Below, piece after piece: positions 7,294-63,274 of a stretch of DNA of 64,000 bases. Made by a program: the position numbers and the translations under genes. The notes beneath the pieces are model-generated. The model had not been told where the DNA came from and searched no databases. It saw nothing but the letters and a program-made list of their open reading frames with translations. How positions within the stretch are numbered: position 1 is the stretch's first letter; each line of letters starts with the position of its first letter. The stretch spans positions 21,652 through 85,651 of the forward strand of contig DASYGV010000094.1 in NCBI GenBank assembly GCA_035999335.1. Direction: 5' to 3'. The DNA is from Thermoanaerobaculia bacterium. Lineage in GTDB: Bacteria > Acidobacteriota > Thermoanaerobaculia > Gp7-AA8.

Positions 7294-8859
7294 ATGCGGA
7301 CGGCGTATACGGCGGTAGCCGTGTTTCTTCTATTGGCATTCGGTGCCGCGGCAGGCACCATCACATCTCTCGATCCTGCATCCATCCCCCATCGTGGCGG
7401 CGAGTTCTTCCTGACGGTCTACGGCTCGGGCCTCGGCGACAAGATCACGTTCGACGGAGCGCCCGGCAGATTCGATCTCGAGATCAGCGCCAGCGACACC
7501 GGCTACGTGATCGTCTGGATTCCCCAGGAGATCGTGAACGATGCCGGGACCTACAACGTGACGGCCGGCGATTCGAACAAGGCGACCCTCACGGTCACGA
7601 AGCCGGGAAGTCCGAAGCTCTCGCTGCATCTGCCGGAGCTGCTCAATGCGCTGGCGAAGTCGCGTCTCGGCACGAAGATCGAGTACGAATTCAACACCAC
7701 CGGCGGCGAAGGAACGATCAACGTGGAGTGCGATCCGAAGTCGGGCTCGACGTTCCCGTACGGCAAGTCGAGCATCCGCTGCGTCGCGAGCGATCAAGCC
7801 GGCAATCGTGCCGATGGCGTCATCGACGTGAACGTGTGGGATGGCACCGCGCCGGTGCTCGAATACCCGAAGTCGTTCGAGGTCCAGGCCGAAAACGACG
7901 AAGGCGCGGTCGTGCAGTACACGACGCGAGCGGTCGATGACGTCGACGGCGAGCTGCGCGTCGTCTGTTCGAAGGAATCGGGGAAGGTTTTCCCTCCCGG
8001 CCGGACGACCGTGAATTGCGAAGCGGTCGACGAAGCGCTCAATCCCGCCTTCGGATCGTTCGACGTGTTCGTGCACCCGCGCGACATCGGCCGTCTCGAG
8101 CTGAAGGTCCCGGACAAAGTCGTGGAAGTCGCACAGAGCGAGGCGGGCGCCGAAGTCTTCTTCGAAGTTCTGGCGTACGGCAGCGCGGATCCCGATCCGG
8201 TGGTCACGTGCAAGCCGCCGTCGGGCTGGTTTTTCCCGATGAAGAAAACGAGGGTGTACTGCAGCGCGGAGGACGATTTCGGCCAGCGTGCGGAAGGAGC
8301 CTTCGACGTCGAAGTGATCGACAGACTCGGGCTGCGTATGCCTGACGTGACGGCCGAGGCCACGAGCTCGAACGGTACGGAAGTGTCGTGGGAGCCGGTG
8401 GCCGAGGATTGGTCGAATGCGATCACCTGCTCGCCGTCCTCCGGTTCGCTGTTCGACCTCGGCGCGACCTCCGTCGACTGCGAGTCGACGGACGCGAAGG
8501 GCCGCCGCGCGGGCGGCAAGTTCACCGTGAATGTGGTCGACACGATCGCTCCGCACATCGGCCGCGTTCGCGCGAACGCGGGTGCGGTGGACGCGCAGCG
8601 GAATGTCGTGCCGGTGGAGGTCGCGGTCGACGCGATCGACGTGGCCGACGCGATGCCGCGTTGCTCGATCGCGACGCTCATCGCCGACGGCGCCGCGTTC
8701 GATTGGCGCGTGAAGTCCGAGCTCGAAGTCGAGGTCGGCGCCGACACGAGCCGTCCGTTCCGCATCCAGGTGAGCTGCGTCGACGCATCCGGCAATCGCT
8801 CGACGGACAGCGTCGCGGTGTCGCTCCAGGGCACCGGCCGCCGCCGCGCGACTCGGTAA
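7294..8859 (+). CDS. Secreted protein with multiple HYR (hyalin repeat) Ig-like domains
   Basis: GGAGG at 7282-7286 lies 7 nt before the ATG at 7294. Signal peptide is MRTAYTAVAVFLLLAFGAAAG. A recurring pattern CxPxSGSxFPxGxTxVxCxAxDxxGN appears about four times. Confidence 0.75.
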   Translation: MRTAYTAVAVFLLLAFGAAAGTITSLDPASIPHRGGEFFLTVYGSGLGDKITFDGAPGRFDLEISASDTGYVIVWIPQEIVNDAGTYNVTAGDSNKATLTVTKPGSPKLSLHLPELLNALAKSRLGTKIEYEFNTTGGEGTINVECDPKSGSTFPYGKSSIRCVASDQAGNRADGVIDVNVWDGTAPVLEYPKSFEVQAENDEGAVVQYTTRAVDDVDGELRVVCSKESGKVFPPGRTTVNCEAVDEALNPAFGSFDVFVHPRDIGRLELKVPDKVVEVAQSEAGAEVFFEVLAYGSADPDPVVTCKPPSGWFFPMKKTRVYCSAEDDFGQRAEGAFDVEVIDRLGLRMPDVTAEATSSNGTEVSWEPVAEDWSNAITCSPSSGSLFDLGATSVDCESTDAKGRRAGGKFTVNVVDTIAPHIGRVRANAGAVDAQRNVVPVEVAVDAIDVADAMPRCSIATLIADGAAFDWRVKSELEVEVGADTSRPFRIQVSCVDASGNRSTDSVAVSLQGTGRRRATR

Positions 8860-8868
8860 TTCTCCATT

Positions 8869-8895
8869 GGGGGGCGGGCTTCCAGCCCGCCCCCT
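8869..8895 (+). terminator. GC-rich stem-loop after the HYR gene
   Basis: ggggggcgggc ttcca gcccgcccccT starts 10 nt after the TAA stop and is followed by a pyrimidine-rich tract. Confidence 0.6.
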
Positions 8896-9088
8896 GCCTT
8901 TGTCCTCTCTTCGTCGCTCTCCTCTCCTTCATTCTTCCCTGCATCGCCAGCGCGCGCATGACTCGCGGTTGCACCGGACGCGAACCGCTGCTTTACTGTC
9001 TCGCGCGAGCTCTGCTTCATCGCGTCGCGAGCAAGGCTAGTGAAACGGAGCAGAAAGGCTGAGACGGAAAGTGCAAAGAGCTAAAGAC

Positions 9089-37694: not shown

Positions 37695-37822
37695 GGGGCC
37701 CTCGAAAGAGGAGAGGCCACCGCAAGGCAATTCCCTACCCCTGCGACACCCCTGTAGCATCCCACAGTCGGCGGGCGATCGCCTTGTTGAAACGCATTCG
37801 CGCGGGCGGCATCTGAGCTGTC

Positions 37823-40016: not shown

Positions 40017-41381
40017 CTAAACCTTCTTCGCCAGCGGATCGAACTTCCAGCGCAGGTCCGTGAACGTGCCTCCGCCGCCCGTGGCGGTGGTGCCCCACAT
40101 CGCGAGCGGTGCGTAATGCTCGTCCACTCCGTGCGGCGCGAGTGCGTGCGGGTTTTCGACGGGGCCGGGCCAGATCACATCGCCGGTCGCGGTGCGCGTG
40201 GGGATCAGCCAATAGTCGCCCGTGCGGTAGCCGCCTTTCGGCGTGTCGACGTGCGAGAACTGCACTTCCACTCCGTCCGACAGCTCGATCCACTGGTTCT
40301 CCTTCACCGGCTCCGGTGGTGCAGCCCAGCGGCGGAGGATGGGATTCAGTTTCGGATCGTCGCCGGCGTTGTCCGCGGGCTGCGCATTCAGCGTCACGGT
40401 CATGCGATGGCGGTCGACCTCGATCACCTGCAGCAGCGGATGCACTTTGCGGCGAAGCGTGATCTCGTCATCGACGACCTCCACCCAGTCGTTCTTCCGG
40501 ATCGCCGTTCGGTCGTCGCGGCCGAGGGACTCGAGCTTCACGGTCGTGCCGTCGATCGGCGCGCGGACGGCATAGACGATGGCCGCGTTGTCCTGCGACC
40601 ACTTGAACGTCGCCGGCTTGTCCGTGGCCGGATCGGCGAAGTCGTGAATCTCGACGCGATACAAACGGTTCTCCGCGCCGCGATACCGAGCCTCGGGCGA
40701 GATCGTGCACGGCTCGAGCTTCTGGTTGATGATCGCTCGCGCCTTCATCCGCGCGCTGCTGCGGAGAAGCAGATTCAGCGCGAGGTAGTTCGCGTCGTAC
40801 GGCTCGATCTTCAGATCCTTCGCGAGGTCGATCACCGGCTTCGAGGGCATATACCGGATCTGCCACGTCACGACCGCGCGGCTCGCGGTGTCGGGTCCGA
40901 GGAGCGCGACCTCGCGGATCGAATCGTCTTCCGCGGACGAGATGTGCCGTTCCCACACCGCGAGGTAGAGCAATCGCTCGACGCGGTTGGGATTATCGTC
41001 CTTCGCCGGCCAGTACGAGTCGGCGTGCGCGGTGATACGGATGCCGTCGCCGAGCTTCTTCTGCAGCTCGGGATCGCCGATGACGTCCCAGAAATCCATC
41101 GGCGGCATGTTCACGCAGCGGATGCCGTCGACGTAGTAATGACCCCACGCGACGCGGAACGGGGACTTCGTCGGATCGTCTTTCTCGGGAACGATCTTGA
41201 ACCCGTTGCCCACGCCGCCGTGCGCGCCGATGACGTCGGCGCCGAGGCCGCGAAGAAACCGCAACGTCGACTCGGTCTGCTCGTTCCAGTCGGAGTCGAG
41301 CTGCACGCGTCCCATCTGCTGGAGCACGCGCGAGACGCGGTCGCGGTAGTGGGTGGGGTTCAGTGAGAAATCGCCGTGCAT
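40017..41381 (-). CDS. eCIS-linked conserved hypothetical, last gene of the operon (possibly the DUF6519 family)
   Basis: AGGAG lies 7 nt upstream of the ATG at 41381. The N-terminus MHGDFSLNPTHYRDRVSRVLQQMGRVQLDSDWNEQ is a motif I recall from genes at the distal end of phage-tail-like clusters. The family name is from memory and unverified. The track ORF start at 41894 is a spurious extension. Confidence 0.6.
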   Translation of the reverse strand: MHGDFSLNPTHYRDRVSRVLQQMGRVQLDSDWNEQTESTLRFLRGLGADVIGAHGGVGNGFKIVPEKDDPTKSPFRVAWGHYYVDGIRCVNMPPMDFWDVIGDPELQKKLGDGIRITAHADSYWPAKDDNPNRVERLLYLAVWERHISSAEDDSIREVALLGPDTASRAVVTWQIRYMPSKPVIDLAKDLKIEPYDANYLALNLLLRSSARMKARAIINQKLEPCTISPEARYRGAENRLYRVEIHDFADPATDKPATFKWSQDNAAIVYAVRAPIDGTTVKLESLGRDDRTAIRKNDWVEVVDDEITLRRKVHPLLQVIEVDRHRMTVTLNAQPADNAGDDPKLNPILRRWAAPPEPVKENQWIELSDGVEVQFSHVDTPKGGYRTGDYWLIPTRTATGDVIWPGPVENPHALAPHGVDEHYAPLAMWGTTATGGGGTFTDLRWKFDPLAKKV

Positions 41382-41391
41382 GATCGGTCTC

Positions 41392-43473
41392 CTAATCCGC
41401 GTAAATGATTCCGGTGTCCATTCCGGCAGGGGTGGCGTGCTCGAGCCGCAGGCGCAGGTTGGCGATGCGCTGCGGCAGGAAGAGGTCGTGGAACGCGCCC
41501 ATCTCCGATTCGTCGTCCGCGCCGCGGGTGATCTCCTCCGCGCAGTCGAACGCGAGCTCCGCGTAGTCGGGCTTCCCGAAGCGCACGCTCGTGAACGTCG
41601 GTTCCACGCGCCGCACCTCGGCGGCGACGACCATCGGCGGCTTGCCTTTGGTCTTCTCGAGAATGAGATCGGGCTGACAGTGATAGCGCTTCGGCGTGCG
41701 CGATTTTCGCGGCACCCAGCAGAAGCGGATGCAGCCGATCTGGCGCCGCACGACGCGCACGATCCCGGTGAAGATCGAGTTCTCGCCGAGCTCGATCGCG
41801 TGTGTCTCGATGCGGCCGAAGACCGTGCAGCGGACGATGCGCAGCGTGGCCCACGCGTACGACGCGCCGGGACCGACGACGGCCTCGCGATCATCTGAAG
41901 TCGCGTCGACGATCGAGTCGCTGATCGAGATGCGCAGCGGCTCCGACTCCGTGGTCTCGTCCATCACCGCGATCGTGCCGAGGATCGTGCGCTCGATGGT
42001 CACGCGTCCCTTGAGATTGCGCAGGTCGAGACTCGACTCGTCCGGTGCGGCAGGGCTGCAGTCGGGACGCACCGTCCAACCCGGCACGAGCGTCGAACGG
42101 CGGATGACCAGCCGCGCGTTCACCGGCTTCTCGCCTTTCCCCTCGACGCGCAGCGGACGTCCGACGACGAGGATGCCGTCGAGGGTGAAGCGCGATTTTT
42201 CGTTCAGCGTGACGCTCAGCGCCTCGCCGCGCGACGGGTGATAGTCGAGCACGTGGATCACGGGACGGCAGCGGTTCGCGGCGCGCAGTTGCAGCGTGTG
42301 CTGTTCCGCGATCTCGACGTCGAAGGACTCGGTGTAGAAGCCGCTGTCTACGATCTCGATGACCGCGTGCCGCGGTTTCTCTTCTTCCCAGAGCGCAATC
42401 GCCTCGGCGATCGTCGTCATCTTCTCGGCGGTTCCGACGCGATAAATCTTCGCGTCGCGCGGCTGCGTGATCACGCGCTGCGATTCGTGCGCGCCGACGT
42501 CGTCGCTGAAGCCGTAGCGATACGACACCCACATCGCGTCGGGCTCTTTCGAGACGGCGATGCGTCCGAGCTTCGGATCGACCGCGACCTTGCCGTCGGG
42601 CGGCCGGTATTCCCAGTCGGTCAGATCGGCGACGATGATGTTCTCGACCGGCACCGGATTCACCGGATCGTCGATCCAGATGACGAAGCTCTTCGCTGTG
42701 CCGTCTTCGTCGATGCCGTAGTAATCGCTGGTGCGTTTCTCCAGCGCGCGGCGGCGGATTGCGGTCGGCACGTGGATCTCGCTCGCGATCGTCGCGAGAT
42801 CGGGCTCGCGCCGCGCCTCGGTGAAGATCGGCGCGTCGTTGCCGAGGGCGCTGAAGGTGTAGAAGAAGTAGCCGCCGCCGCGTTGTACGAAATACGCGGG
42901 CGCGTGCGTGACCGTGAACGAGCGCAAACGCCACAGCCACGCCGCCGCGGTCGGGATGTTGTGCCAGCCGTCGGGATTCGGCGGGTTGATGCCGCGGACG
43001 TCGACGGTGTGCGCGAGGGTATCGAACGCGCCGTTGAGGAGATCGAGCGACTCTTCGTTGCGAAGATCGATGAAGCGTCCGCGCTCGTTGAGATGATTGA
43101 TCGATTGCGTGCGTCCGAGGAGCCTGTAGTACTCGACCGCGCGGGCGGGGAAGCCGCCGACGTCGTTCGCGAGCTCTTCGAGCTGCGCGAGCGTGCCGCG
43201 ACGGCGAAGGTCGCGCAGGTAATTCGCGACCGCGCGCCGCGGCGTCTTGCTCGCGAACACGACTTCATATCCGACCAGGTCGCCGATGTACGGCACGACC
43301 CAGTCCTCGCAGGTCTCGATGAACCAGTTCTCGTAGAGCTGAGCGATGTCTTCCTCGACGAGGTTCACCTGTTCGGAGATCGCGCGCAGGAGATCGCGCA
43401 GCGCGTGACGGTGTTCCTCATCGCGCTGGCGGTAGACGACCGGGAGGAGGTCGAACAGGCGGTCGATGTTCAT
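41392..43473 (-). CDS. Baseplate wedge protein, P2 gpI-like N-terminus (Afp12/Pvc12 equivalent) with a long C-terminal extension
   Basis: MNIDRLFDLLPVVYRQRDEEHRHALRDLLRAISEQVNLVEEDIAQLYENWFIETCEDWVVPYIGDLVGY matches the phage tail protein I / tail-domain pattern. Start is at the ATG at 43473. The track start at 43617 reads through a repeat element. Confidence 0.75.
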   Translation of the reverse strand: MNIDRLFDLLPVVYRQRDEEHRHALRDLLRAISEQVNLVEEDIAQLYENWFIETCEDWVVPYIGDLVGYEVVFASKTPRRAVANYLRDLRRRGTLAQLEELANDVGGFPARAVEYYRLLGRTQSINHLNERGRFIDLRNEESLDLLNGAFDTLAHTVDVRGINPPNPDGWHNIPTAAAWLWRLRSFTVTHAPAYFVQRGGGYFFYTFSALGNDAPIFTEARREPDLATIASEIHVPTAIRRRALEKRTSDYYGIDEDGTAKSFVIWIDDPVNPVPVENIIVADLTDWEYRPPDGKVAVDPKLGRIAVSKEPDAMWVSYRYGFSDDVGAHESQRVITQPRDAKIYRVGTAEKMTTIAEAIALWEEEKPRHAVIEIVDSGFYTESFDVEIAEQHTLQLRAANRCRPVIHVLDYHPSRGEALSVTLNEKSRFTLDGILVVGRPLRVEGKGEKPVNARLVIRRSTLVPGWTVRPDCSPAAPDESSLDLRNLKGRVTIERTILGTIAVMDETTESEPLRISISDSIVDATSDDREAVVGPGASYAWATLRIVRCTVFGRIETHAIELGENSIFTGIVRVVRRQIGCIRFCWVPRKSRTPKRYHCQPDLILEKTKGKPPMVVAAEVRRVEPTFTSVRFGKPDYAELAFDCAEEITRGADDESEMGAFHDLFLPQRIANLRLRLEHATPAGMDTGIIYAD

Positions 43474-51869: not shown

Positions 51870-52208
51870 CTAAACATTCACTCCCTCCGGTAACGCGATC
51901 GCGAGCCTTCGCCCGATCGTCTCCGTCAATTCGTCCGGTCGCATCGCGCGGTTCGCGTCGGCGATGCGCCAGAAGAGCTCCGGATCGCCGAGGTAGCGAG
52001 CGGCGATGTGGTCGAGGCGCTCGCCCTGCATGACCATGTGCTCGCCGATGATCGACAGGCGCTCCGGCAGCGGCACGAATCGGCGGCGCACGTAAGCGTG
52101 GGTCTCGCCGTCGATCTCGATCTTCGCGATCTCGAGTCCGGCGTAGCGGCTGGTCGGACCGAACGGCGACAGCGGAATGACGAATTGCAGCGCGAGCACG
52201 TCGCTCAT
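51870..52208 (-). CDS. LysM-like / tail protein X-like small protein
   Basis: HMVMQGERLDHIAARYLGDPELFWRIADANRAMRPDELTETIGRRLAIALP fits the LysM/gpX pattern. 112 aa. It overlaps the upstream gene by 4 nt. Confidence 0.65.
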   Translation of the reverse strand: MSDVLALQFVIPLSPFGPTSRYAGLEIAKIEIDGETHAYVRRRFVPLPERLSIIGEHMVMQGERLDHIAARYLGDPELFWRIADANRAMRPDELTETIGRRLAIALPEGVNV

Positions 52209-52855
52209 GGGATCGCTCCTACTCCGATGTCTTTCAGCGCGCCGGACGGCGGGATCTTCGCGAAGGTCTCCTTGACGCGCTGATAGGCGAGATAGATCGA
52301 GCTGCCGCGGTGATCGAAGCCGAGGTCGGTGACGCTCAGTACGCGCATGCCGAGGCTCACTTTTGCGCGGATGGGATTGAGCTTCGTGTCGAACGCCTCC
52401 TCGGTGATCGAGAAGTCGGTGATGCGCACCGGCACGATGCGCGACGCGCTCCAGACGAACAGCACGAGCGGCTGTTCCATCGGCAGGATCTCGAGCACGC
52501 CGCTCGCGGCGAGCGCGTGATTCGAGAGGAGTTGCGTCGTCGTCGGATAGAGGATCATCTCCAACGCGGAGAGCTCGGGGAAGATGCCGGACTGCAGCAC
52601 CGTCGCCCCGGGCTTCGCGACTTCGAGTTGATCGGTCGCGTCGATCTCCGCGTCGATCTTCAGCGTCTCGACCGCGGGTCCCTTGAGGCGCAGCACTTCC
52701 GAGCGATCGCCGGATTCGCCTCCGGTGGCCTGCACCGCCAGCGTGCGCGCGAGCGAGTCGGGTGTGTACTGCATGACGATCACGCGCGCGATGTTCGACG
52801 TGAGCGGATCGAGCAGCACGAGGCCGGCCTTGAGCGTGGAAGGAGTAATGGTCAT
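52205..52855 (-). CDS. CIS tube-fold protein (tube initiator, Afp7/Pvc7 N-domain-like)
   Basis: LKAGLVLLDP...VIVMQYTPDSLARTL and LVLFVWSASRIVPVRITDFSITEEAFDTKLNPIRAKVSLGMRVL fit the contractile-injection tube-protein pattern (xFxFNPxxL ... PVxIxSLxIxExxF). Confidence 0.65.
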   Translation of the reverse strand: MTITPSTLKAGLVLLDPLTSNIARVIVMQYTPDSLARTLAVQATGGESGDRSEVLRLKGPAVETLKIDAEIDATDQLEVAKPGATVLQSGIFPELSALEMILYPTTTQLLSNHALAASGVLEILPMEQPLVLFVWSASRIVPVRITDFSITEEAFDTKLNPIRAKVSLGMRVLSVTDLGFDHRGSSIYLAYQRVKETFAKIPPSGALKDIGVGAIP

Positions 52856-52862
52856 CGGCGCC

Positions 52863-54302
52863 TCACTTGATCTCCTCGCAGAGCGTCACTGGCATGTCGA
52901 ACTTCTTCAGCGTCTCCGGTTGGATCTTCTGGGGCCCGGCGCAGTCGGTCCGCTTCGAGGAGAAGAGCTGGGCCTCCTTGGTGTACTTCGCCCGGGCGGC
53001 CGTGTACTCGCTCCATCGCGCCAGGAAATCCTTGTCGAGGGTGCCGGTCTGTCCGTCGAACTGCGGAACGGGATGCGTGCGCACGTACTCGATCAGATCG
53101 AGTCCGTGTTGACCCTCATGGAAGCGCGTGGAGGTCGTGCCGGCGAACTTGTCCTCGGGTGTGGTGCCGCGGCCGTAGCCGGCCGGATCGCTCGGCCCCC
53201 CGCCCGGACCGTAGACGGTCTTGATGAAGACCGTCGTGCGGGGTGGCGTAACGGTGAAGCTCTGGACGATGTTGGTGTTCGTATCGATCGTGTGCTCGAG
53301 CTGCGAGTCGACGAACTTGATGCCGGTGTACGCGTGATTGCGGTAGTTCTCGTCCTTCGAATACTCATCGGGGTCGACGCGAACGTCCGTGCCGCCGATC
53401 TGGAACGCGGCCGAGCCGCTCGGCTCGACCGTTGCCGTGACCGGAATGGGCGTCGTGATGCCCTGCAGCTGCACGATGCGTTGGATCTGCTTCTGCACTT
53501 TCGGATCGACGGCGCTCCGGACGTAGTCCTGCAGTTCGTCCGGTGAAAGCGATCGCAGACGCTCCATGAGCGCGGCGCTGCTGAAGTCGGCGTCGGTGAG
53601 CGTGAGGGCCTCGACTTCACGGCGGTTCGCGCCGCTGAAGTTGTCCCAAAGCCGATCGCGCCCGATCGCGGCAACGATGTCCATCCGCTCGGGCGACCTT
53701 CGCAACAGCGTGTTGATCGAGCGCTCGTCGAGGAACGTCGTCCAGCCGTGCAGCATGTCCTCGATGAGCCAGACCTTCGTGTCCTTGTCGAAAGGCGTGT
53801 CGAACTCTTTCTCGCGCGAGACGCACGCGCGGGCCATGTTGTCGCTGAAGAGACTCTTCTGCGGTCCCTTTCTCTCCTTCATGCCGTCGACGTATTTCTT
53901 CAGGTCCTCGAAGGGAAAGGCCTCCAGTCCGAAGAGGCGTGGAACGAACAGGACGACGTCGAGGAACGTGCTCCACGCGGAGAGTTGGATCTGCGGCCGC
54001 TGCTCGACGACGTGTTGCAGTTCGTGATCGAGCAGCGCCATGCCGTGCGCCGTGGACGGCGCGTACATCCCGCGCCCGAACGCGATGTCGCTGCCGAACG
54101 TCCACGCGCGCGCGTCGAAGGATTCCGCCGAGCGTGCTGCGTGCTCATCGTCGTGCACGCGCACGCGGCTGAAGTCGTGCTGGAAGCGGGACTCGAATCG
54201 CGCGCGCACCGGTGCATCGAGCGGCTTGCCGGGCGAGCGGAGCACGTCACTGGCGCTCCACGGTGCCGCGGAAGGCCGTTGCCGTTGCGCGAACGCGCTC
54301 AT
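52863..54302 (-). CDS. DUF4157 (HExxH) protein with a C-terminal domain carrying a second HExxH; putative eCIS cargo
   Basis: Start is the ATG at 54302, overlapping the upstream TGA. GKPLDAPVRARFESRFQHDFSRVRVHDDEHAARSAESFDARAWTFGSDIAFGRGMYAPSTAHGMALLDHELQHVVEQ is a canonical DUF4157. The C-terminal domain has FHEGQHGLD. The track ORF start at 55007 is a spurious Arg-rich extension. Confidence 0.8.
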   Translation of the reverse strand: MSAFAQRQRPSAAPWSASDVLRSPGKPLDAPVRARFESRFQHDFSRVRVHDDEHAARSAESFDARAWTFGSDIAFGRGMYAPSTAHGMALLDHELQHVVEQRPQIQLSAWSTFLDVVLFVPRLFGLEAFPFEDLKKYVDGMKERKGPQKSLFSDNMARACVSREKEFDTPFDKDTKVWLIEDMLHGWTTFLDERSINTLLRRSPERMDIVAAIGRDRLWDNFSGANRREVEALTLTDADFSSAALMERLRSLSPDELQDYVRSAVDPKVQKQIQRIVQLQGITTPIPVTATVEPSGSAAFQIGGTDVRVDPDEYSKDENYRNHAYTGIKFVDSQLEHTIDTNTNIVQSFTVTPPRTTVFIKTVYGPGGGPSDPAGYGRGTTPEDKFAGTTSTRFHEGQHGLDLIEYVRTHPVPQFDGQTGTLDKDFLARWSEYTAARAKYTKEAQLFSSKRTDCAGPQKIQPETLKKFDMPVTLCEEIK

Positions 54303-54886
54303 GCGTGGCCTCCTGCGAACCGCACGATCAGAATCGCGAGCGCGCTCAGCGCGCAGATCCACTGCGCCTCGGAGACGCCGAGCCAGCGCCGGCGCTCGTC
54401 GTCGCGGAAGTATTCGAGCGTGAACCGCGCGATTGCGTACGCGATGACGTAGAACGCGAAACCGTAGATCGCCGTTAAGGCGGCGATGACGAACAGCGTC
54501 GCCGATTCGACGTATTGCACGCGCACGCGTCCGACGCGTCCGTGACAACAACCCGCGCTCGCGCAACCGATGCGCCCGATCGCCTGCGCGATCGCGAGCG
54601 CGAGCGCGAGCAGATCGAGCGCGGAGGGAAGCATCACCATCGTCGCTGCGACGGTCGCGAGCTGATAGTGCAGGAACGAGAACGACTCGACGCCGAACAG
54701 CACCTTGGTCATCGCCGCGAGGAACAGCGCGACGCACACGGCGAACGCGGCGACCGCGATCCACAACAGCGGCGTGAGTCCCGCGCGCGTGGCGAAGAGC
54801 GTCGTGACCGCGATGCCCGTCACGCTGCCGCCGAGGACGCAGGTGCGGTAGGAGAGCAAGCTCACGCGGGACATGGCGGCGGCCAC
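54299..54886 (-). CDS. Short Lgt-family (prolipoprotein diacylglyceryl transferase-like) membrane protein
   Basis: Five to six TM helices. AIGRIGCASAGCCHGR and LEYFRDDERR resemble the Lgt GR(I/L)GCxxxGCCxG and EFFR motifs. At 195 aa it is shorter than canonical Lgt. The start is ambiguous (54886 or 54874). Confidence 0.6.
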   Translation of the reverse strand: MAAAMSRVSLLSYRTCVLGGSVTGIAVTTLFATRAGLTPLLWIAVAAFAVCVALFLAAMTKVLFGVESFSFLHYQLATVAATMVMLPSALDLLALALAIAQAIGRIGCASAGCCHGRVGRVRVQYVESATLFVIAALTAIYGFAFYVIAYAIARFTLEYFRDDERRRWLGVSEAQWICALSALAILIVRFAGGHA

Positions 54887-57654
54887 TCCTTCTTCTTCTC
54901 TTCGTCCTCGATTTCGCTGTCTTTTTCTTTTTCTTTGTCTTCCTCTGGAGGCTGTGGCACTTTTTCGCCGCGCAGGACCTTCGTTGCCTCGGTGGAGTTG
55001 TTTTCAAACTCCATTTCGGAGTTCCACCCGTGGTACTTCAACGGACCTAGTTCCTTGCAAAGTGCTCCGAGCTTTCCCTGAAAGTGGACGCGCGCGAGCA
55101 AGTCCTCGCCGACGATGATGGCGAGCTCCTGGACCGCGTCGTAAGCCTGCGCGTAGCTGCCGCCGAGGTAGGGCGGCTTCTCTTTTCCCCAATCGCGGCG
55201 CATCACCACGCGGCGCGTGAAGTACTCGGTCAAGCCCTCCTTCGCGAAGTGCTTGAGGTTGTCCGTGTTGGGATGGGCGAGTGCATGCACCATCTCGTGC
55301 AGCATCGTCTCCGGCGAATCGCGCCGCGTCTGGACCGTGATCCTGTTCGTGTCGCGGTCATGGAAACCCTGCACGGTTTCCTCGAACGCGGTGCAGTACT
55401 CGTATCTTTTCTGCAGGGGCACTGATTCGGGTTGGCGGCTCATGCAGTCTTCGTAGACTTCCTTCATCGGATGCGCGGTCTCGACGATCTCTGTTTCTTT
55501 CGCGGGCGCGGCCCGCTCGTCCGTGAAGTACTTCCCGTACACATCGTGAATCCATTGATATGCGGAGCTCCGGCCGCCTTTTCCGCGAAGCTTCTCCGTA
55601 CTCTTTTCGGTCTTTACGTTCGAAGACAGAGTCGTTTCGGGCAAGTCTTCGCCGAACTGCACGACCTCGAACTTTTCGGCCATCGGCTTGCTGCTGTTCT
55701 CGAATTCGGCGTTGAGCTTCTCGAGGTCCGGCCTTTGCGGCGGCTTTTCTTTTTCGGTCGACAGGAACTCGACCGGATAGGCGAGCGGGTATCGGCGCAT
55801 GTAGAACCGCCAGAGCGCCTCTTTTTGGGACGTGAATTTGTCGAGCAGGTCCGCGTGCGGAATGGCGCCTTTCGGGCCGAGGATCAATTCGAGGTCGGGG
55901 CTCTCGGAACGCTCGAGCAGACCGAGGATCTGCACCTGATCATTGTCCTCGGGACCGTTGTCGAGCATCTGCCGGATGAGGATGGTCTTGCGGCGAACGG
56001 TGAGGTAGTAATCGGACTGGCCTTCGCCCCATGCTTCCGAAACGTCGCGCGCGCGCTTCGCGGCCGTGTCCGTCTGCAGCGTTCCCTTGGCCGTGTCGAC
56101 GCCTTGCAGATATTCCTGCATTTCCTCAGGAGTGGAGCTGCAGCTCTGCAAACGCAGGCTCGATTTGAGCCTCGGCATCGCGTTCGCGCGAACGTCGCGC
56201 GCCCAGTGCCGAAGCCTTGGCCAGAGTCCGAGGACCGCATGCACCGCTGCGTCGTCGGCATCGTGCTCGAGTGCCGTCGTCGCCGCGTCACTCTTGGTCA
56301 GGACCTCCGGGGCGCCTTCCTGCTGTGCGACGTGCGCGAGCTCGTGCGCGAGGAGCGCGTCACCGACGAGCGTGCCCGGCGCGTATTCGCCGTTCGCGAA
56401 TGCGATGTCGTTGCCGATCGTGAACGCGCGCGAGCGGATGCGCGCGGCCTCGGACGCCGCGTCCGCGCCGGTGTGGATGCGCACGCCGGAGAAGTCGCGC
56501 CCGAACGCCTGGCCCATGCGCGAGGCGACGCCGGCGTCGAGCGGGCGTCCGGCGCCCGCGTCGAGTGCTACGTTCGTAGCAGGCGCGGGTGCGCCGTCGC
56601 GCGATTTGCGGAAGAGACTTCCGATCGCGCCCTTGATCATGCCTCCGACGCTGATGCGGATCTTGCCGCCGGCGAGGAGCTCCATCAGGTCCGGCGGCAC
56701 GCCGGCGACGCTGCCGGTCCTGGCCCAGATGCGGATCGATTCCGCGAGGCGCTCGGTGATGCGCGGGATGTACGCGCGCGCGTGCCGCACCTGCGCGTCG
56801 GGCTCGATCCAGCGGCGGATGGAGACCTCGAGTTGCCGCGTGCTCATCGAACGGATGCGCGGGCGCCATTGCTCGAGGAGCGGGCAACCGTCCGTGGATC
56901 GTCCGAGGTTGCCGATCTCCTCGCGCGAGGTCTCGCAGATCGCCGCGTCGAGCAACGCCACGAATTCCGAGCGCCGCATCTGGCCCGCGGCGGGCGAAGC
57001 GGAGTCTTCGACGATCAGGCGATGCGCCTCTTCCTCGCCGGTCGCGGGCTCTTCGTCTTCGCGCTTGCGCCGCACGAGACGCTCGGCGACCGGCGCGATC
57101 GCAGGCGGCGGCGCGAACGCGGGACCCTGCGCGACCACCAGGTCGGCGATGCGATCCGCGGCGCGTTCGTGAGCGTCGTCCGCGGGACCGACGCCGCTCG
57201 GCAGCGCGGTCCCGCTGCGCTGTTGCATGACGTGCGCGAGCTCGTGCGCGAGGAGGCGCCGGCCGCTGGTCGTGTGCGGCGCAAAACGGCCGGCGCCGAA
57301 GACGATGTGTGTGCCGGACGTGTACGCTGCGGCGTTGATCTCTTTCGCCGATTCCGCGGCGTGCGTGTCGGTGTGGACGCGAACGTCCGCGAGGCTGCGG
57401 CCGAAGCGGCTCTCCATCGACGCGCGCGTCTCGGCGTCGAGCGGATGTCCCGCGGATCCGAGGATGTTGCCGACGCTGCGCGGAACCTCGGTGTCCGTTT
57501 CGCCGAGGGCGTGGCGCTGGACTTTCTTTTTCTTCTTCTCGTCCGCGCACGGGCCGCACGATCCGCCGCATCCGCACTTGCGCTGCACGACGATCGGCGC
57601 GCGGCGTTTCACGTCGGAGTCTGGGGTGCGGAGGGCGTGCTGTTTCTCTTGCAT
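54862..57654 (-). CDS. Double-DUF4157 protein with a C-terminal gluzincin-like domain; putative eCIS toxin cargo
   Basis: The N-terminus is QHALRTPDSD...[15 protein letters not shown]. The first DUF4157 is GHPLDAETRASMESRFGRSLADVRVHTD...[12 protein letters not shown]. The second is GRPLDAGVASRMGQAFGRDFSGVRIHTG...[12 protein letters not shown]. The C-terminal domain has MLHEMVHALAH followed by KEGLTEYF, then a Lys/Glu-rich tail. Confidence 0.8.
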   Translation of the reverse strand: MQEKQHALRTPDSDVKRRAPIVVQRKCGCGGSCGPCADEKKKKKVQRHALGETDTEVPRSVGNILGSAGHPLDAETRASMESRFGRSLADVRVHTDTHAAESAKEINAAAYTSGTHIVFGAGRFAPHTTSGRRLLAHELAHVMQQRSGTALPSGVGPADDAHERAADRIADLVVAQGPAFAPPPAIAPVAERLVRRKREDEEPATGEEEAHRLIVEDSASPAAGQMRRSEFVALLDAAICETSREEIGNLGRSTDGCPLLEQWRPRIRSMSTRQLEVSIRRWIEPDAQVRHARAYIPRITERLAESIRIWARTGSVAGVPPDLMELLAGGKIRISVGGMIKGAIGSLFRKSRDGAPAPATNVALDAGAGRPLDAGVASRMGQAFGRDFSGVRIHTGADAASEAARIRSRAFTIGNDIAFANGEYAPGTLVGDALLAHELAHVAQQEGAPEVLTKSDAATTALEHDADDAAVHAVLGLWPRLRHWARDVRANAMPRLKSSLRLQSCSSTPEEMQEYLQGVDTAKGTLQTDTAAKRARDVSEAWGEGQSDYYLTVRRKTILIRQMLDNGPEDNDQVQILGLLERSESPDLELILGPKGAIPHADLLDKFTSQKEALWRFYMRRYPLAYPVEFLSTEKEKPPQRPDLEKLNAEFENSSKPMAEKFEVVQFGEDLPETTLSSNVKTEKSTEKLRGKGGRSSAYQWIHDVYGKYFTDERAAPAKETEIVETAHPMKEVYEDCMSRQPESVPLQKRYEYCTAFEETVQGFHDRDTNRITVQTRRDSPETMLHEMVHALAHPNTDNLKHFAKEGLTEYFTRRVVMRRDWGKEKPPYLGGSYAQAYDAVQELAIIVGEDLLARVHFQGKLGALCKELGPLKYHGWNSEMEFENNSTEATKVLRGEKVPQPPEEDKEKEKDSEIEDEEKKKEWPPPCPA

Positions 57655-57663
57655 CGTTCGCCC

Positions 57664-59295
57664 TCAGGAAGCGGGGATGAGCAGCCGTTTGCCGATCGGC
57701 AGCAACGTGTCGGGAGGAAGTCCGGGATTGGCGCGGCGGAGCGACGACAGCGGGATCTCCCACATCTTCGCGATCTCCCACAGCGTCTCGTCCTTGATGA
57801 CCTCGTGGTAGAAGACGTTGCGGATGATGACGAAGGAGTCCGGCTCCTCGTCGACGCTGTGGTGGCGCTCTCCTTCCCCGCGGAAGATTTGATCGAGGAT
57901 GTTCGCCTCGGCGATGCCGCAGCGGCGTGCGATCGACTTGAGCGTCTCGCCTTTCTTGATGTCGTAGTACGAGCTGAAAGCCGAATCGATCATGCCGGGC
58001 GCATCGATCGGCTCGACGCCAGCCTCGCCTTTGCGGATGCCGAGGCTGTTGCGCTTCGTCGAATGCTCGCGGCGGATGCGATTCTCGACGTCGACGGCCG
58101 ACTCCTTCCCCTTCGGCGTCTGCGTGTGACGGCTCGCGAAGAACGTATCGAACGCGTGCTCGGTCATCACGTGGCCGCAGAGCTCGTGCGCGAAGATCAG
58201 CCACGGCGGATCGCGAAGGATCTGCGAGCGTCCGCTGCCGGAGAGCGGACTCGTGGCCGCGGCCCCTTCGATCTTGTCGTGCTCGCGTCCGGAGACGCCG
58301 ATGTGCGTTTCGGTTCGTGCGCCGCGCGGCCCGAGGGTCATGCCTTGGCCGCGGTCTTCGGTGCCGGACACGTTGATCGTCTCGGTCTTCCCGGCCTCCT
58401 CTCCCGGCGCTGTGAACGAATCGCCGGTGTGAAGGTGGACATCGGGCGCGCCGTCCGCGGTGATGTCGCAGAGGCATTTGCAGGAGACCGGTTTGCCGCT
58501 GCGGCGGAACGAAGTGCGCTTCATCTCGTCGCGGCAGAAGGCCTCGCGGTTCGGCGACGAGAGGACGCCGCTCGCGGAGTCGATCTTCCAGCCGCCGCCG
58601 GGGCACAACGTGTCGATCCAGGTCTGCGCGAGCTGCGCGTTCGTGAGAACAGGCAGCGCGGGATCGCGGCCGGCCGGCTGGTTGGGCGCGTCCTTTCCCG
58701 CGTCTGCGACGGTCATCTTGCGCTGCACGCGGCCGGCGTCTCCGCCCTGCTGCCCGACGTGTGCGAGCTCGTGCGCGAGAAGACGCCGTCCCGCTTCCGT
58801 GTGCGGCGCGTATTCGCCGTGATTGAAGACGATGTGCGAGCCGACGGTGTACGCGCGCGCAGTTACCGCACGGGCCGACTCCGCGGCTTCGGCATCGTCG
58901 TGCACGCGAATGGCGGCGAGTGACCGGGGGGCCGGCGCCTCGCCGGCCGTACCGCCGGCCCCCGGCCTGCGAGGCGCCGGCGCGACGGCCGCCGAGGCGG
59001 CGGCACCCCAGTTGTCCGCTTCCTGCTCGAATGCATCGCCAACCTCGCCGACGGCGAGCTTTTGCGGTCCAACCGACGGGACGCGCGTGAAGTCGTGCGC
59101 GAACCGCGGCTCGAAGAACGCACGCGTGTCGGAGTCGAGCGGACGTCCCGGCGTCGCGAGCACCCGCCGCACGGGCGCTGTCGCTTCGCCGCGGCAGGAG
59201 CGACACGCTCCGCCGCAACCGCACTTGCGTTGCACGGTCAGACCGGTGCTTCGGTCGGAGTCAGAAGTGCGGCGGGCGTGCTGATGCTCGTTCAT
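57664..59295 (-). CDS. DUF4157 / HExxGH-domain / double-LysM protein, tandem paralog A
   Basis: The N-terminus is QHARRTSDSD...[15 protein letters not shown]. Next comes [23 protein letters not shown], then [16 protein letters not shown]...[12 protein letters not shown]. The middle domain has FAHELCGHV and VENRIRREH. Two C-terminal LysM-like repeats are YDIKKGETLKSIARRCGI and HEVIKDETLWEIAKMWEI. Confidence 0.8.
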   Translation of the reverse strand: MNEHQHARRTSDSDRSTGLTVQRKCGCGGACRSCRGEATAPVRRVLATPGRPLDSDTRAFFEPRFAHDFTRVPSVGPQKLAVGEVGDAFEQEADNWGAAASAAVAPAPRRPGAGGTAGEAPAPRSLAAIRVHDDAEAAESARAVTARAYTVGSHIVFNHGEYAPHTEAGRRLLAHELAHVGQQGGDAGRVQRKMTVADAGKDAPNQPAGRDPALPVLTNAQLAQTWIDTLCPGGGWKIDSASGVLSSPNREAFCRDEMKRTSFRRSGKPVSCKCLCDITADGAPDVHLHTGDSFTAPGEEAGKTETINVSGTEDRGQGMTLGPRGARTETHIGVSGREHDKIEGAAATSPLSGSGRSQILRDPPWLIFAHELCGHVMTEHAFDTFFASRHTQTPKGKESAVDVENRIRREHSTKRNSLGIRKGEAGVEPIDAPGMIDSAFSSYYDIKKGETLKSIARRCGIAEANILDQIFRGEGERHHSVDEEPDSFVIIRNVFYHEVIKDETLWEIAKMWEIPLSSLRRANPGLPPDTLLPIGKRLLIPAS

Positions 59296-59304
59296 CGTTC
59301 GTCC

Positions 59305-60885
59305 TCAGGAAGCGGGGATGATCAGCCGCGCGCCGTTGGGCGCCGCGCCTGTCGCGGGAAGTGTCGGGTTCGCACGGCGGAGTGACGCGAGCGGGATCCC
59401 CCACGTTTTGGCGATGTCCTCGACCGTCTCGCCGCTCAGGACGTCGTGGTAGAAGACGCCCCGGATGAAGAGAACTTCGTTTTTCGGAATCGCGGCATCA
59501 GCGTTCTTGAAGCGGTCGCCTTCCCCGCGAAAGATGTCCCACGTGATGCGGAACGTCGCAATGCCGAAGCGCGCGGCCACGGTGCGCAGCGTGTCGCCGG
59601 CCAGCGGCGTGACGTACGAGCCGCGGATGACGATGCTGGCCGACGGGTCGTTCGGGTCTTCGACGCGCGCATCTCCCTGACGGATGCCGAGGTTGTTCGC
59701 CACCGTCGAATGCTCGCGGCGAATCCGGTTCTCGACGTCGACGGCCGACACCGTTCCGCTCGGGGTCTGCACGTGTGATCCCCTGCCGAATGCGCTGTTC
59801 GCGCGAGGCCCGACGACGTGGCCGCAGACCTCGTGCGCGAAGATGATCCACGGCGGGTCCTGCAGCAGTTGTCCTCGGCCGCTCCCACCAGCGGGTGCCG
59901 TCGCGCCCGCGCCGCGCACACCCCACCCCGCGCGCCCGGAGATGCCGACGTGCGTTTCCGTGCGCTTCCCCTCGGGATCGAGCGTCGCGCCCTGACCCTC
60001 CTTCGTCACATCGTGCTTCTCGGTATTCGTCCTGTCCTTGTCCGGCGCCTCGAAGACGTCTCCGGTGTGCAGCCAGACCGACGGCGAGCCGGGTGCGGTG
60101 ATGTCGCAGAGACACTTGCACGACACCGGATGCTTGCTGCCCGCGTAGCCGGGCGTCGCCGGAGCGGTCCCGTCGGTCGTCGGGCCGCCTCCGCAGAACG
60201 CGGCCCGGTTCGCAATCGAGAGAACACCCAAGCCCGGGTCCACGGTCCATCCGTGCGATCCGCAGAGCGAGTCGATCCAGCTCTGTACGAGCTGCGCGTT
60301 CGTGAGCTTCGGTTGACTCTGGGAGAACGTCGCCGGGTCGAAGACGCCTAGCGATCGTTGCAGCGTTCCAACATTCTGTTGACCGACGTGCGCGAGCTCG
60401 TGCGCGAGAAGACGACGTCCCGCTTCCGTGTGCGGCGCGTATTCGCCCTGATTGAAGACGATGTGCGAGCCGACGGTGTACGCGCGTGCGGTCACCGCGC
60501 GCGCCGACTCCGCGGCTTCCGCATCGTCGTGCACGCGAATGGCGGCGAGCGACCGGGGGGCCGGCGCCTCGCCGGCCGTACCGCCGGCCCCCGGCCGGCG
60601 AGGCGCCGGCGCGACGGCCGCCGAGGCGGCGGCACCCCAGCGGTCCGCTTCCTGCTCGAACGCGTTGCCTGCCTCACCGACGGCGAGTTTCTGCGGCGCC
60701 TGCGTCGCGGCGACGCGCGTGAAGTCGTGGCCGAAGCGCGGCTCGAAGAACGCGCGCGACGCGGAATCGAGCGGACGTCCCGGCGTTGCGAGCACACGCC
60801 TCACGGATGGCGGCGCATCGTTGCCGCAGGAATGACACTTGCCGCCGCAGCCGCATTTGCGCTGAAGCGTGGCCGCGGCCATCAT
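59305..60885 (-). CDS. DUF4157 / HExxGH-domain / double-LysM protein, tandem paralog B
   Basis: Same architecture as paralog A: [68 protein letters not shown] and two LysM-like repeats. The ATG at 60885 overlaps the upstream TGA. Confidence 0.8.
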
Positions 60886-61139
60886 TTCGCGCCTCCCACG
60901 CCGCCGTACACCGAGCCCGCGATCGACGTGCCGAGTTGTTGGACGTCGTTCGCCAAGGAGATCCGCGGCGCGCGCACGCTCGGCACGGCGATGCCTCGAG
61001 CGAGCGCTGGCGAGATGCCGCCGCTTGCGATTAGCCTTGCGAGCTCCGCCTCGATCGCCGCCTGCAATCGCGGACGATCGGCGGCGCGCACGTTGACGCC
61101 GTCGAGCACGAGGCGGTCGATGTGCAGGCGGACGCTCAT
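60882..61139 (-). CDS. 85-aa conserved-looking hypothetical coupled between the ATPase and the cargo genes
   Basis: [37 protein letters not shown]. It has ATGA overlaps at both ends (61136-61139 and 60882-60885), which argues that it is translated. Confidence 0.55.
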
Positions 61140-63274
61140 AAGACAGCCATCCAGCGGAAGTCGGCCTCGTTGATCGGCTTCTGCAGCTTGCGCATCTCCG
61201 TCCGCGCGGCCTCGAGCACGATCGGCATGGTCACGTTCGTGCCGCGGTCGGCGGCGAGGAACGCCGCGTTGAGGACGATGTTGTGCACACTCCCGCCGGT
61301 GAGGTTCAGCTTCGCGAGGCGATCGAGATCGAGCTCGTCCGTCGGAGTTTCAGGCGGGAACGCGCGACGCCAGATCGCCCGCCGCTCTTCGGGGCCGGGG
61401 AAGGGAAACTGCACGATGAAGCGCAGGCGGCGCATGAACGCGGGGTCGAGCGCGTCCTTCAGGTTCGTCGCGAGGATCGCCAGACCGCGATACGACTCCA
61501 GCCGTTGCAGGAGGAAGTTGATCTCGATGTTCGCGAAGCGGTCCTGGCTGTGCTGGACCTGCGTGCGCTTGCCGAACAGCGCGTCGGCCTCGTCGAAGAA
61601 GAGGATGCCGTTCGAGTCGTCGGCGGCGGTGAAGAGCTGCTGCAGGTTCTTCTCCGTCTCGCCGACCCACTTGCTCACGACCGACGAGAGATCGATGCGA
61701 TGCAGCGCGAGCCCGAGCTCGTTCGCGATGACCTCGGCCGCCATGGTTTTGCCCGTGCCGCTCTCACCCGAGAACAGAGCGCTGATACCGAAGCCGCGGT
61801 TCATCTTCGCGCGGAAGCCCCACTCGTCGTACACGCGGCTGCGTCCCGCGACGTGCGCGGCGATCTGCTGCAGCAACTCTTTTTCGACCGCGGGGAGGAC
61901 GAGATCGTCCCAACGCGCTTTCGCGTCGATGCGTTGCGCGAGCGAGTCGATGTGCAGGCGCGTCTGCAGTCCGGCGAACGACCAGAGGCGATCGCTGAGC
62001 GGTCCCTCGGCCTCGTCGTCCTGCGCCTGCGCGACGATGCGGCGGATCGCGGCGACGCTGAGATTGAACTGACCGGCGAGACGCGACGCGTCGCCGTCGT
62101 GATCTTCGCCGAGGAGTGTGGTCCAGACTTCGCGCTGCTCGGCGGGCGTCGGCTTGTCGACGTCGAACGTGTGCGAGCCCTGCGGCACCGGCCATGTCTC
62201 CTTCGCGTCGACGAACAACACGCCGCCGCCGCGAGCGAGGAAGCGCTTGAGCGGCGTCGCATGCGCCTCGGCGTTGCGATCGACTTCGCGTGCGTCGAGG
62301 TAGAGCGCGATCGGGAGCAGCAGCGTCTCGCGCTGCCAGAGTCGCGAGAGCGTTTCGAGCTCTCCCGGTTGCACGGGGAGCATGTCGGCGGAGAGGCGAT
62401 AGAGCGTGAGGCCGAGTCGATGCGACGCGGCGCGCGCGACGAGCTGCTTGCTCTCCGCGTCGCGTCCGAGGAGCTGGAGCGGACGGAGGCGGGGCTGATC
62501 GTGTTGCAGCGCGCGGAGGACCAAATCGACGACCGCGGCCTGCGACGCCGGCAGCTCGTCGTCGTGCACCGGCTCGGAAAGCGGCATCACGAACGACGCG
62601 ATGCGGTCGTCGAGATGGCTGAGACCTTTGATGTAGTTGACGACGCGCTCGTCCGCGCGCATTGCACTCGTCGTCAGCGGCTGCGTGCCGGCGGGGCCGA
62701 TGTCGATGAAGCGCCAGTAGCGCAGAGGGCGATCGGGCGAGATCGCGTCCCAGCTCGCGCCTTCGAAGATGGCCATCGCTAGCGCGTACGTCGGGAACGG
62801 ACGGGACTGATCGTCCTGTGCGCGCGCACACAGCGCTGCGATGCGCGTGTCGAGCTCCATCGCCACGCAGAGAAGCAGCACGTCGCGCTCGAAGTTCGTG
62901 AGGCCCGTGCGATGAGCGAGCAGCATCATCGCCGGCGGCGGCTCGCCCGTCTCCGCATCGCGCATTTTCTTTTCGGCCTCGCGGACCTGCTCCGCGGTGA
63001 CGCCGGGAGCGGGTGGAAGCGCGGGACGCGTCGGCCCGGGCTGCGGTGGGGTGGGAGTCGTGCCCGGTGACGTGCGCCGCCACGTCCACCATGACGCGCT
63101 CTCCTCGTTCGTCGTCGTTTCCGTGCGCGGCGTCGCGCGCTGCTCGGCGACGACGAACGGTTGCGTCGACATAGACGGCACGTGTCGTGTGAGCAGGAGC
63201 CGCAGCCACTCGACGGCCGCGGCGAGATATGCGTCATTGCTCTGATGCCACGTCGAGAGATCTCGGGCGTTCAT
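61136..63274 (-). CDS. eCIS-type AAA+ ATPase (Afp15/Pvc15 equivalent)
   Basis: The C-terminal AAA module has Walker A GESGTGKT and Walker [12 protein letters not shown]. It also has SRH-like [20 protein letters not shown]. Start is the ATG at 63274 (MNARDLSTW), overlapping the upstream TGA. The track start at 63676 adds 134 Arg-rich residues. Confidence 0.9.

Follow-up and report, generated by a model that had tools for sequence, protein, structure and literature searches.

Gene content of the locus

A contig from a Thermoanaerobaculia bacterium (Acidobacteriota; assembly GCA_035999335.1, contig DASYGV010000094.1) carries, in the 64,000-nucleotide stretch that we analyzed (positions 21,652 to 85,651; hereafter the window), a gene cluster of a contractile injection system (CIS). 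Within this cluster, six minus-strand genes at 52863-61139 are enclosed by the gene of an AAA+ ATPase on one side (61136-63274) and a tube-initiator-like gene on the other (52205-52855), both also on the minus strand. Four of the six genes encode proteins with the domain DUF4157. We refer to the space between the two anchor genes as the slot.

Reading from the ATPase towards the tube initiator, the first gene of the slot (60882-61139) encodes a conserved protein of 85 aa, A85. It is followed by B526 (59305-60885) and its paralog C543 (57664-59295), which have an identical architecture: a leader with four cysteines (Cys4), a DUF4157 domain with an insertion of ~58 residues, a payload with the motif HExCGH, and two LysM-type units. 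By alignment, the payload covers residues 192-411 of B526 (59653-60312) and residues 214-429 of C543 (58009-58656). D930 (54862-57654) consists of a Cys4 leader, two DUF4157 copies, helical regions, a putative gluzincin-like domain and a K/E-rich tail ending in CPA. Next comes E195 (54299-54886), a short polytopic membrane protein of the Lgt family (PF01790 LGT, E 1.7e-11), whose gene overlaps the end of D930 and the start of F479. F479 itself (52863-54302), the last gene before the tube initiator, contains a DUF4157 domain (residues 27-102), a helical domain and a C-terminal beta-rich domain with the motif HEGQH, and has no Cys4 leader.

The upstream anchor is an ATPase of the Afp15/Pvc15/Alg15 type (712 aa on the source contigs) that matches AAA (1.3e-28) and WHD, the N-terminal winged-helix variant domain (4.3e-20); it is CDC48-like, not ClpV. 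The downstream anchor, T216, gave a weak match to CIS_tube (E 0.043) and has homologs with 45-80% identity at the same position in 53 of the related loci described below. Beyond it lies X112 (51870-52208, minus strand), a gpX/LysM-like small baseplate protein with a weak Phage_tail_X match (E 0.021) and conserved synteny.

An initial annotation of the window had described six tightly packed genes between the ATPase and the tube and baseplate genes, and this description holds. The overlaps at ATPase/A85 (at the ATPase stop codon), A85/B, E/F and T216/X112 are of 4 nt, the spacers measure 9 nt at B/C and at C/D and 7 nt at F/T216, and the D/E overlap is 13-25 nt depending on the start codon chosen for E195. 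F479 starts at 54302 (MSAFAQ...), inside a longer open reading frame (ORF) of 714 aa. On the source contigs, three JGI metagenome contigs on which the window genes recur (L001-L003), C543 is automatically called as a 502-aa protein that starts 41 codons late, so that its QRKCGCGG leader is cut off; we favor the 543-aa start because the junction sequence there is common to the start of D930.

The same annotation had reported four DUF4157 genes, and this observation is correct, far beyond chance. PF13699, the old DUF4157, is listed by Pfam today as the "eCIS core domain". Its profile hidden Markov model (HMM) matched all four proteins with E-values from 1e-24 to 3e-59 (B526, 1.9e-27 at residues 111-172; C543, 2.3e-24; D930, 3.4e-59 over two stretches; F479, 1e-27) and with scores of 85.8-197.4 bits against a gathering cut-off of 22. 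When the whole window was scanned in six frames, only these four ORFs matched. Together they hold five full copies, two of them in D930, in agreement with the "at least five" counted initially, and in addition two N-terminal fragments, one in B526 and one in C543. In these two proteins the domain is split after "DFTRV" by ~58 residues that bear the motif "L.VG...FEQEAD". The DUF4157 signature is legible in the translations as first quoted, including the metal-binding part HExxHxxQ, which reads HELAHVGQQ in B526 and C543, HELAHVMQQ and HELAHVAQQ in D930, and HELQHVVEQ in F479. The further motifs noted at that time can be read there too, as HEMVH in D930, HE[LV]CGH in B526 and C543, and HEGQH in F479.

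Position of the slot in the injection-system operon

Pfam matches in the window identify a Phage_base_V spike (3.6e-20), a GPW_gp25 wedge (3.2e-17) and a Baseplate_J protein (3.6e-6). The genes downstream of the slot encode a gpX-like protein, a hub-like protein, the Phage_base_V spike, the gp25 wedge, a large unannotated protein and the large Baseplate_J protein. On L001, the sequence beyond the window's end holds a cut unannotated gene, a gp19-type tube (Phage_T4_gp19), two small proteins and a Pvc16_N cap, and then comes the ATPase; the place of the sheath gene is likewise past the end of the window. The cluster is an Afp/PVC-type CIS of Thermoanaerobaculia (Acidobacteriota).

To place the slot in its lineage, we retrieved 64 related loci from reference genomes through the ATPase and read their gene order by tblastn with the window proteins. 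The closest ATPase relatives, with 78-80% identity, come from metagenome-assembled genomes (MAGs) of Thermoanaerobaculia and other Acidobacteriota. Other loci come from Burkholderiales, Rhodanobacter, Dyella, Luteibacter, Collimonas, Sphingomonas, Cyanobacteria, Chloroflexota, Bacteroidota and Abditibacteriales, and further ones from one Nocardioidaceae MAG and two methanogen MAGs, so that both bacteria and archaea are represented. The order ATPase, A85 homolog, DUF4157 genes, T216, X112, H376, V174 is kept almost everywhere. The operon order of the lineage is tube, cap (Pvc16_N), AAA+ ATPase, 85-aa core protein, variable DUF4157 genes, tube initiator, hub, spike and baseplate.

What varies is the number of DUF4157 genes. 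Among the 50 loci with both anchor genes, three have no such gene in the slot, nine have one, 19 have two, 11 have three, five have four and three have five; some incomplete loci have six. Four cargo genes, as in the window, are thus at the high end and not exceptional. The initial annotation had considered cargo in the middle of the operon unusual compared with Afp and PVC, and it is unusual against these two only: relatives carry one to five DUF4157 genes in the same slot in 47 of the 50 two-anchor loci, so mid-operon cargo is the rule for this lineage. There is also a haloarchaeal precedent, the CIS of Halogeometricum borinquense, in which a nine-gene "interspacing region" midway along the cluster encodes DUF4157 toxins and downstream immunity partners (PMC11566945). 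In two Acidobacteriota loci, an extra DUF4157 gene lies outside the slot, downstream of the tube initiator (L007:20746-21063, after X112, and L057:20561-21085).

The block had also been described as an island inserted into the structural operon. Its composition gives no sign of foreign origin, because GC content at third codon positions (GC3) is 0.82-0.89 in the cargo genes and 0.85-0.90 in the structural genes; the one lower value, 0.77, belongs to the payload half of D930. A compositionally foreign island was accordingly rejected. Apart from DUF4157 genes, the only other recurrent genes that we found in the slot were the Lgt-like family and a few Rhodanobacter-type genes, in a search that was noisy with spurious ORFs in GC-rich DNA.

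A85, which had initially been counted with the cargo, has no match in Pfam or NCBIfam. By tblastn, homologs were found in 53 loci, typically with 85 aa and with the conserved motif LHIERLVLDG...LQAAVEAEL.RLL...LG.QIA.AVYGGIG. By HMM, it was found in 69 of 74 loci, which are all those whose sequence includes the part behind the ATPase, and it immediately follows the ATPase in each of them except L021. The three loci whose slot lacks DUF4157 genes have it as well. Because A85 is kept in all covering loci, including those with DUF4157-free slots, we regard it as a core gene of the lineage that is coupled to the ATPase and not as cargo. An adaptor role is possible.

Polymorphic payloads on a constant module

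We wondered how far the DUF4157 proteins of this lineage share their C-terminal regions. Across 59 loci, the window included, these regions fell into 18 small clusters and 70 singletons. Within the window, a comparison of the B526 and C543 genes in 60-nt windows gave 97-98% identity over the ~240-nt DUF4157 core and 35-73% over most of the rest. The longest exact match between them, 46 nt, lies at 58922-58967 in the C copy and at 60551-60596 in the B copy, both on the minus strand. B526 and C543 thus share a gene-conversion block over the constant module. The B/C and C/D junctions, in addition, both carry ATCCCCGCTTCCTGAGGRCGAACGATG. Such a combination of common junctions and an identical block is what would be expected from recombination on a constant module. 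D-type payloads, which in the window follow two DUF4157 copies, also occur on single-DUF4157 scaffolds (P0186, P0187 and P0189). DUF4157 has been described as the constant N-terminal module of polymorphic toxins of the PVC type ("PVC-metallopeptidase"; Zhang et al. 2012, PMC3482391) and as the core domain of extracellular CIS (eCIS) that is fused to toxins (PMC8213781). The proposal that these genes form an effector array with polymorphic payloads is supported by the clustering and by the constant block, and the DUF4157 proteins behave like such an array. In sister loci, other payloads carried by DUF4157 proteins include 3D, YkuD and Gln_deamidase_2 domains (L076:3971-5260 and 8001-8966; L078:4016-5245; L080:675-2609).

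A cysteine leader at the N-terminus

B526, C543 and D930 begin with the Cys4 leader. Its motif is C-x(1-2)-C-x(2-12)-C-x2-C, which precedes the first DUF4157 domain by a median of 30 residues and usually has the form LQRKCACGxHTxxGGECxxCxKK..LQR. It occurs in 112 of 151 DUF4157 ORFs, in 52 of the 59 loci, compared to 11 of 1085 control ORF segments. In the AlphaFold2 (AF2) model of C543, residues 1-32 are predicted to be disordered, with pLDDT below 50 for residues 1-26 and 28-32. The cargo proteins of the slot are built from a leader predicted to be disordered (usually with LQRKCxCG..CxxC), a constant zincin-like DUF4157 module and a variable C-terminal payload. We propose that the Cys4 leader serves as the loading tag of this lineage; cysteine motifs of this kind are not mentioned in PMC11297309 or in the PROCIS preprint. 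In this function, the leader could also be tried out on engineered particles.

The leader also bears on a different explanation of the block, namely that some or all of the DUF4157 proteins are assembly or structural factors, either adaptors of spike and hub or tape-measure-like fillers of the tube lumen, with F479 the best candidate. The slot has the position of phage tape-measure genes, just upstream of the tube initiator and hub, no separate tape-measure gene was identified for the lineage in the region examined, and the present Pfam name of the domain, "eCIS core domain", would suit such a part. F479 adjoins the tube initiator and lacks the leader motif, and C-terminal regions of the F type recur in the last position of the slot in L007, L027, L060 and L068. 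In Streptomyces, the DUF4157 protein Sle2 binds proteins of the spike complex (PMC13277306), and in Streptomyces davawensis the gene of Tme, a DUF4157 protein related to tape measures, lies two genes upstream of that for the tube initiator (PMC11126660). A copy number from zero to at least six and the extreme diversity of payloads, however, are unexpected for a structural part, and three loci have a slot without any DUF4157 gene. By predicted secondary structure, none of B526, C543, D930 and F479 resembles a long coiled-coil tape measure. Finally, the leader is spread without bias over first, middle and last positions of the slot, and 35 of the 47 last-slot proteins have it. We therefore consider a structural role unlikely. 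Two unannotated small genes between tube and cap (L001:1386-2689; 206 and 228 aa) are tape-measure candidates.

Payload domains

The payload of C543 (residues ~214-429) had no match in Pfam, NCBIfam or PDB sequence searches. A profile search of 1.84 billion proteins recovered 136 representative relatives of the B/C payload. Among 67 aligned members, the accompanying domains were eCIS_core in 50, LysM in 26, OmpA in two, PG_binding_1 in one and RHS repeats in one. Near-invariant positions (C numbering) are five cysteines, H370-E-x-C-G-H375 and E404-N-x2-R-x-E-H411. Judged from these alignments, the payload belongs to a small family that carries no name as yet (HExCGH...ENRIRREH) and is fused to modules that bind the cell wall.

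The LysM repeats that had been noted next to the HExxGH domain were recovered in both proteins. PF01476 scored 54 bits in C543 (1.6e-14, over two stretches; LysM at residues 497-541) and 24.8 bits in B526 (2.1e-5), against a cut-off of 20.9. The C543 model is confident (pLDDT 85.8), and Foldseek matched it to the tandem LysM structure 4uz2 with a probability of 1.00; searches of PDB and BFVD with the full-length model, in which the LysM units dominate, returned tandem LysM structures only. From this domain combination, we infer that B526 and C543 act on peptidoglycan, in which case the system would be at least partly antibacterial. The association of the payload with peptidoglycan-binding modules, together with the 3D and YkuD payloads of sister loci, further suggests that cargo of this lineage may often target the cell wall. 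The B/C payload, linked as it is to cell-wall modules, could be a new antibacterial enzyme.

Wall-directed domains would also fit a cassette for self-lysis and release, in which B526 and C543 act as LysM-bearing wall hydrolases and E195 opens the envelope of the producer, as in the lysis cassettes of tailocins. Such a function could account for the LysM modules, the association with peptidoglycan-binding domains and the polytopic membrane protein within the block, and lysis of the cell is the reported way out for released CIS particles (PMC8213781). The leader and DUF4157 module of B526 and C543, however, are common to more than 100 cargo proteins with unrelated payloads, and the B/C payload is absent from most related loci. 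E195 belongs to the Lgt family, is not holin-like, and is tied to D-type and not to B/C-type proteins. We regard a lysis cassette as very improbable. A homolog of the B/C payload with LysM (P0001, 370 aa; L071:10001-11113) is called with a start in the tail of a DUF4157 domain (..HGLTNVLQQ). Structural CIS genes are not close by, but two eCIS_core genes follow 2.4 kb downstream, and the gene could represent a cargo cassette that is truncated or orphaned.

In D930, the first DUF4157 copy (71-148) is followed by a helical middle, the second copy (~367-450), a helical domain that is also present in F479, and a domain with HEMVH...EGLTE. The initial annotation had called the last domain gluzincin-like. 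The motif fits this name, with HExxH-x15-EGLTE invariant in seven sequences, whereas the evidence from the fold is weak. The AF2 model of D930 is of medium quality (pLDDT 72), its best Foldseek match, the peptidase domain of clostridial collagenase T, is weak (E 0.41, probability 0.66), and the same is true of a SprT-like Pfam match (E 0.11). A gluzincin-like protease domain is plausible. D-type payloads share one more feature: in 12 of 12 orthologs (window 54862-54960; L007, L008, L074, L076 and L078; P0184-P0189), a flexible linker rich in K, E and P leads up to a cysteine that is 1-3 residues away from the C-terminus (..KCK, ..KCT, ..GEC, ..PPPCPA).

The third payload type, the HEGQH domain of F479, is present as initially described, and no match was found in PDB sequence or permissive Pfam searches. 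Homologs of this C-terminal region occur in L007, L027, L044, L060 and L068. We considered whether the leaderless F type is a position-specific core protein beside the tube initiator and found this unsupported, as the leader shows no positional bias and F-type payloads are found elsewhere too. For the isolated B/C, D and F payload segments together, permissive Pfam searches gave nothing better than E 0.04, and PDB sequence searches with the three payloads gave LysM-level matches or none.

The Lgt-like protein E195

E195 is the only obvious downstream partner gene in the block; it follows D930, and B526, C543 and F479 have none. It scored 44.4 bits against PF01790 (gathering cut-off 24.9). PDB searches with E195 alone and with the profile of its family found no match, and the relation to Lgt emerged only by profile-profile comparison: hhalign aligned residues 11-184 with residues 24-273 of E. 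coli Lgt (probability 99.7%, E 1e-26 against canonical Lgt). E195 keeps the equivalents of E. coli Lgt Y26, R143, G154, Q199, E202, Y235, R239, E243, R246 and D249. Cysteines stand in place of N146 and E151, as they do in a subfamily annotated as Lgt, and the H103-GG region is missing. Because its score is far below the NCBIfam equivalog cut-off (51.7 vs 334 bits), we do not regard E195 as a housekeeping Lgt. The 46 homologs of E195 that we found are mostly longer (275-332 aa), with an extra internal loop and a C-terminal domain of ~110 aa, both of which have been lost in the window copy. E195 is identical over 98% of its length to a protein of a Thermoanaerobaculia MAG in NCBI.

In every context examined (the window, L007, L008, L030, L062, L074, L076, L078 and L080), the Lgt-like gene lies directly 3' of the double-DUF4157 gene, usually with a 4-nt overlap. 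L076 has a second one after a DUF4157-3D protein (the two Lgt-like genes encode 429 and 321 aa). The simplest reading, by analogy with the toxin-partner pairs of haloarchaea, is that E195 is a dedicated downstream partner of D930 with an immunity-type or accessory role. Neither a paper linking Lgt with CIS or DUF4157 nor a report of an Lgt-like gene trailing a double-DUF4157 protein was found in the literature searched.

E195 might instead be a catalytically competent lipid transferase dedicated to the system, which would lipidate a cargo protein or another substrate within it, or give enzyme-based protection against its partner. The ten retained residues, the coupling to the double-DUF4157 gene in nine contexts and the cysteine-rich leaders of the cargo are consistent with this. 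Standing against it are the absence of the H103-GG region, the low equivalog score, the loss of the internal loop and of the ~110-aa domain present in longer relatives, and the Cys4 leader being common in loci without an Lgt-like gene. A link to the conserved C-terminal cysteine of D-type payloads was tested and failed: L081 has a terminal-Cys protein and no Lgt-like gene, in L030 and L062 the Lgt-like gene follows proteins without a terminal Cys, and the gene tracks the double-DUF4157 scaffold. We consider an active transferase improbable. If it were one, a lipid-modification step would be added to the biology of contractile injection systems; unless the Lgt-like protein is enzymatically involved, the current picture of such systems is unchanged.

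Proposed cargo loading and relation to known systems

On the strength of domain content, synteny and payload polymorphism, we think it likely that the region is the cargo slot of an Afp/PVC-type CIS, filled with DUF4157 toxins that are loaded into the particle and differ in their payloads. In AlgoCIS of Algoriphagus machipongonensis, Cgo1 and Cgo2, each with a disordered N-terminus, a DUF4157 domain and a variable C-terminus, fill the tube lumen (PMC8894135), and cargo loading depends on the leader and the ATPase (bioRxiv 10.64898/2026.05.27.728243). [quoted passage not shown] There, B526 and C543 would bring a metal-site domain with LysM units to act on peptidoglycan, D930 would deliver a gluzincin-like protease domain, and F479 a further domain of the HExxH type.

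Several observations argue in the other direction. The metal motif of the B/C payload is HExxxH and not the classic HExxH, and F479 does not have the leader motif. No payload matches a characterized toxin family, with Pfam, NCBIfam and PDB searches empty and Foldseek limited to LysM or weak matches. AlgoCIS cargo can be loaded without its DUF4157 domain. E195 retains most of the invariant Lgt residues, which suits an enzyme no less than a passive immunity protein.

The general design, with DUF4157 cargo and mid-cluster toxins, is already well documented. AlgoCIS (PMC8894135, bioRxiv 10.64898/2026.05.27.728243) resembles the window not only in the build of its cargo but also in having several cargo genes and an AAA+ ATPase in the cluster and one payload predicted to be a metalloprotease. 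It belongs to another lineage and has another gene order, and four cargo genes (one with double DUF4157), the Cys4 leader, LysM modules and an Lgt-like partner are found only in the window. The CIS/T6SS cluster of H. borinquense (PMC11566945) likewise has a mid-cluster non-structural block with DUF4157 proteins. Unlike the window system, it is archaeal and cell-bound, and each DUF4157 protein has a small downstream partner that neutralizes its toxicity, whereas in the window only D930 has an obvious partner; as far as stated, the haloarchaeal partners are not membrane proteins of the Lgt family.

The PVC-metallopeptidase and eCIS toxins (Zhang 2012, PMC3482391; Geller 2021, PMC8213781; Danov 2024, PMC11297309) share with the window proteins a constant zincin-like N-module with HExxHxxQ, recombining C-terminal toxin domains, several paralogs per genome and the frequent absence of immunity genes. 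One validated eCIS example, EAT14, combines DUF4157, LysM and an enzyme. The three payload domains of the window, in contrast, belong to no named Tox or Pfam family. Afp of Serratia and PVC of Photorhabdus have the same tube, gp25, spike, Baseplate_J, Pvc16_N cap and AAA+ ATPase; their payloads are located at the 3' end and have no DUF4157, whereas in the present cluster the baseplate genes come after those of the ATPase and cap, with the cargo in between. E. coli Lgt (PDB 5AZB) has the same fold family as E195, with both catalytic arginines and most invariant residues in common. It is a housekeeping protein of 291 aa, compared to 195 aa for E195, which is encoded in the cargo slot of a CIS and has neither the H103-GG region nor the periplasmic head.

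The window thus adds a further case of an established design, polymorphic CIS cargo tagged with DUF4157, from the poorly studied Acidobacteriota (class Thermoanaerobaculia). The B/C payload family, the Cys4 motif of the lineage and the 97-98% identical block of B526 and C543 were not found in the literature searched. The value of the locus lies in a catalog entry and in its leads: three unnamed payload domains, the Cys4 leader, the universal 85-aa gene and the Lgt-like partner.

Two further minus-strand genes lie on the far side of the baseplate genes. The first (40017-41894) encodes a 625-aa DUF6519 protein (3.5e-67) that may be a fiber or distal component. The second (35364-37760), past the CIS cluster and apparently unrelated to it, encodes a 798-aa Lhr-like DEAD/DEAH helicase (DEAD 7.9e-26, Helicase_C, WH_Lhr).

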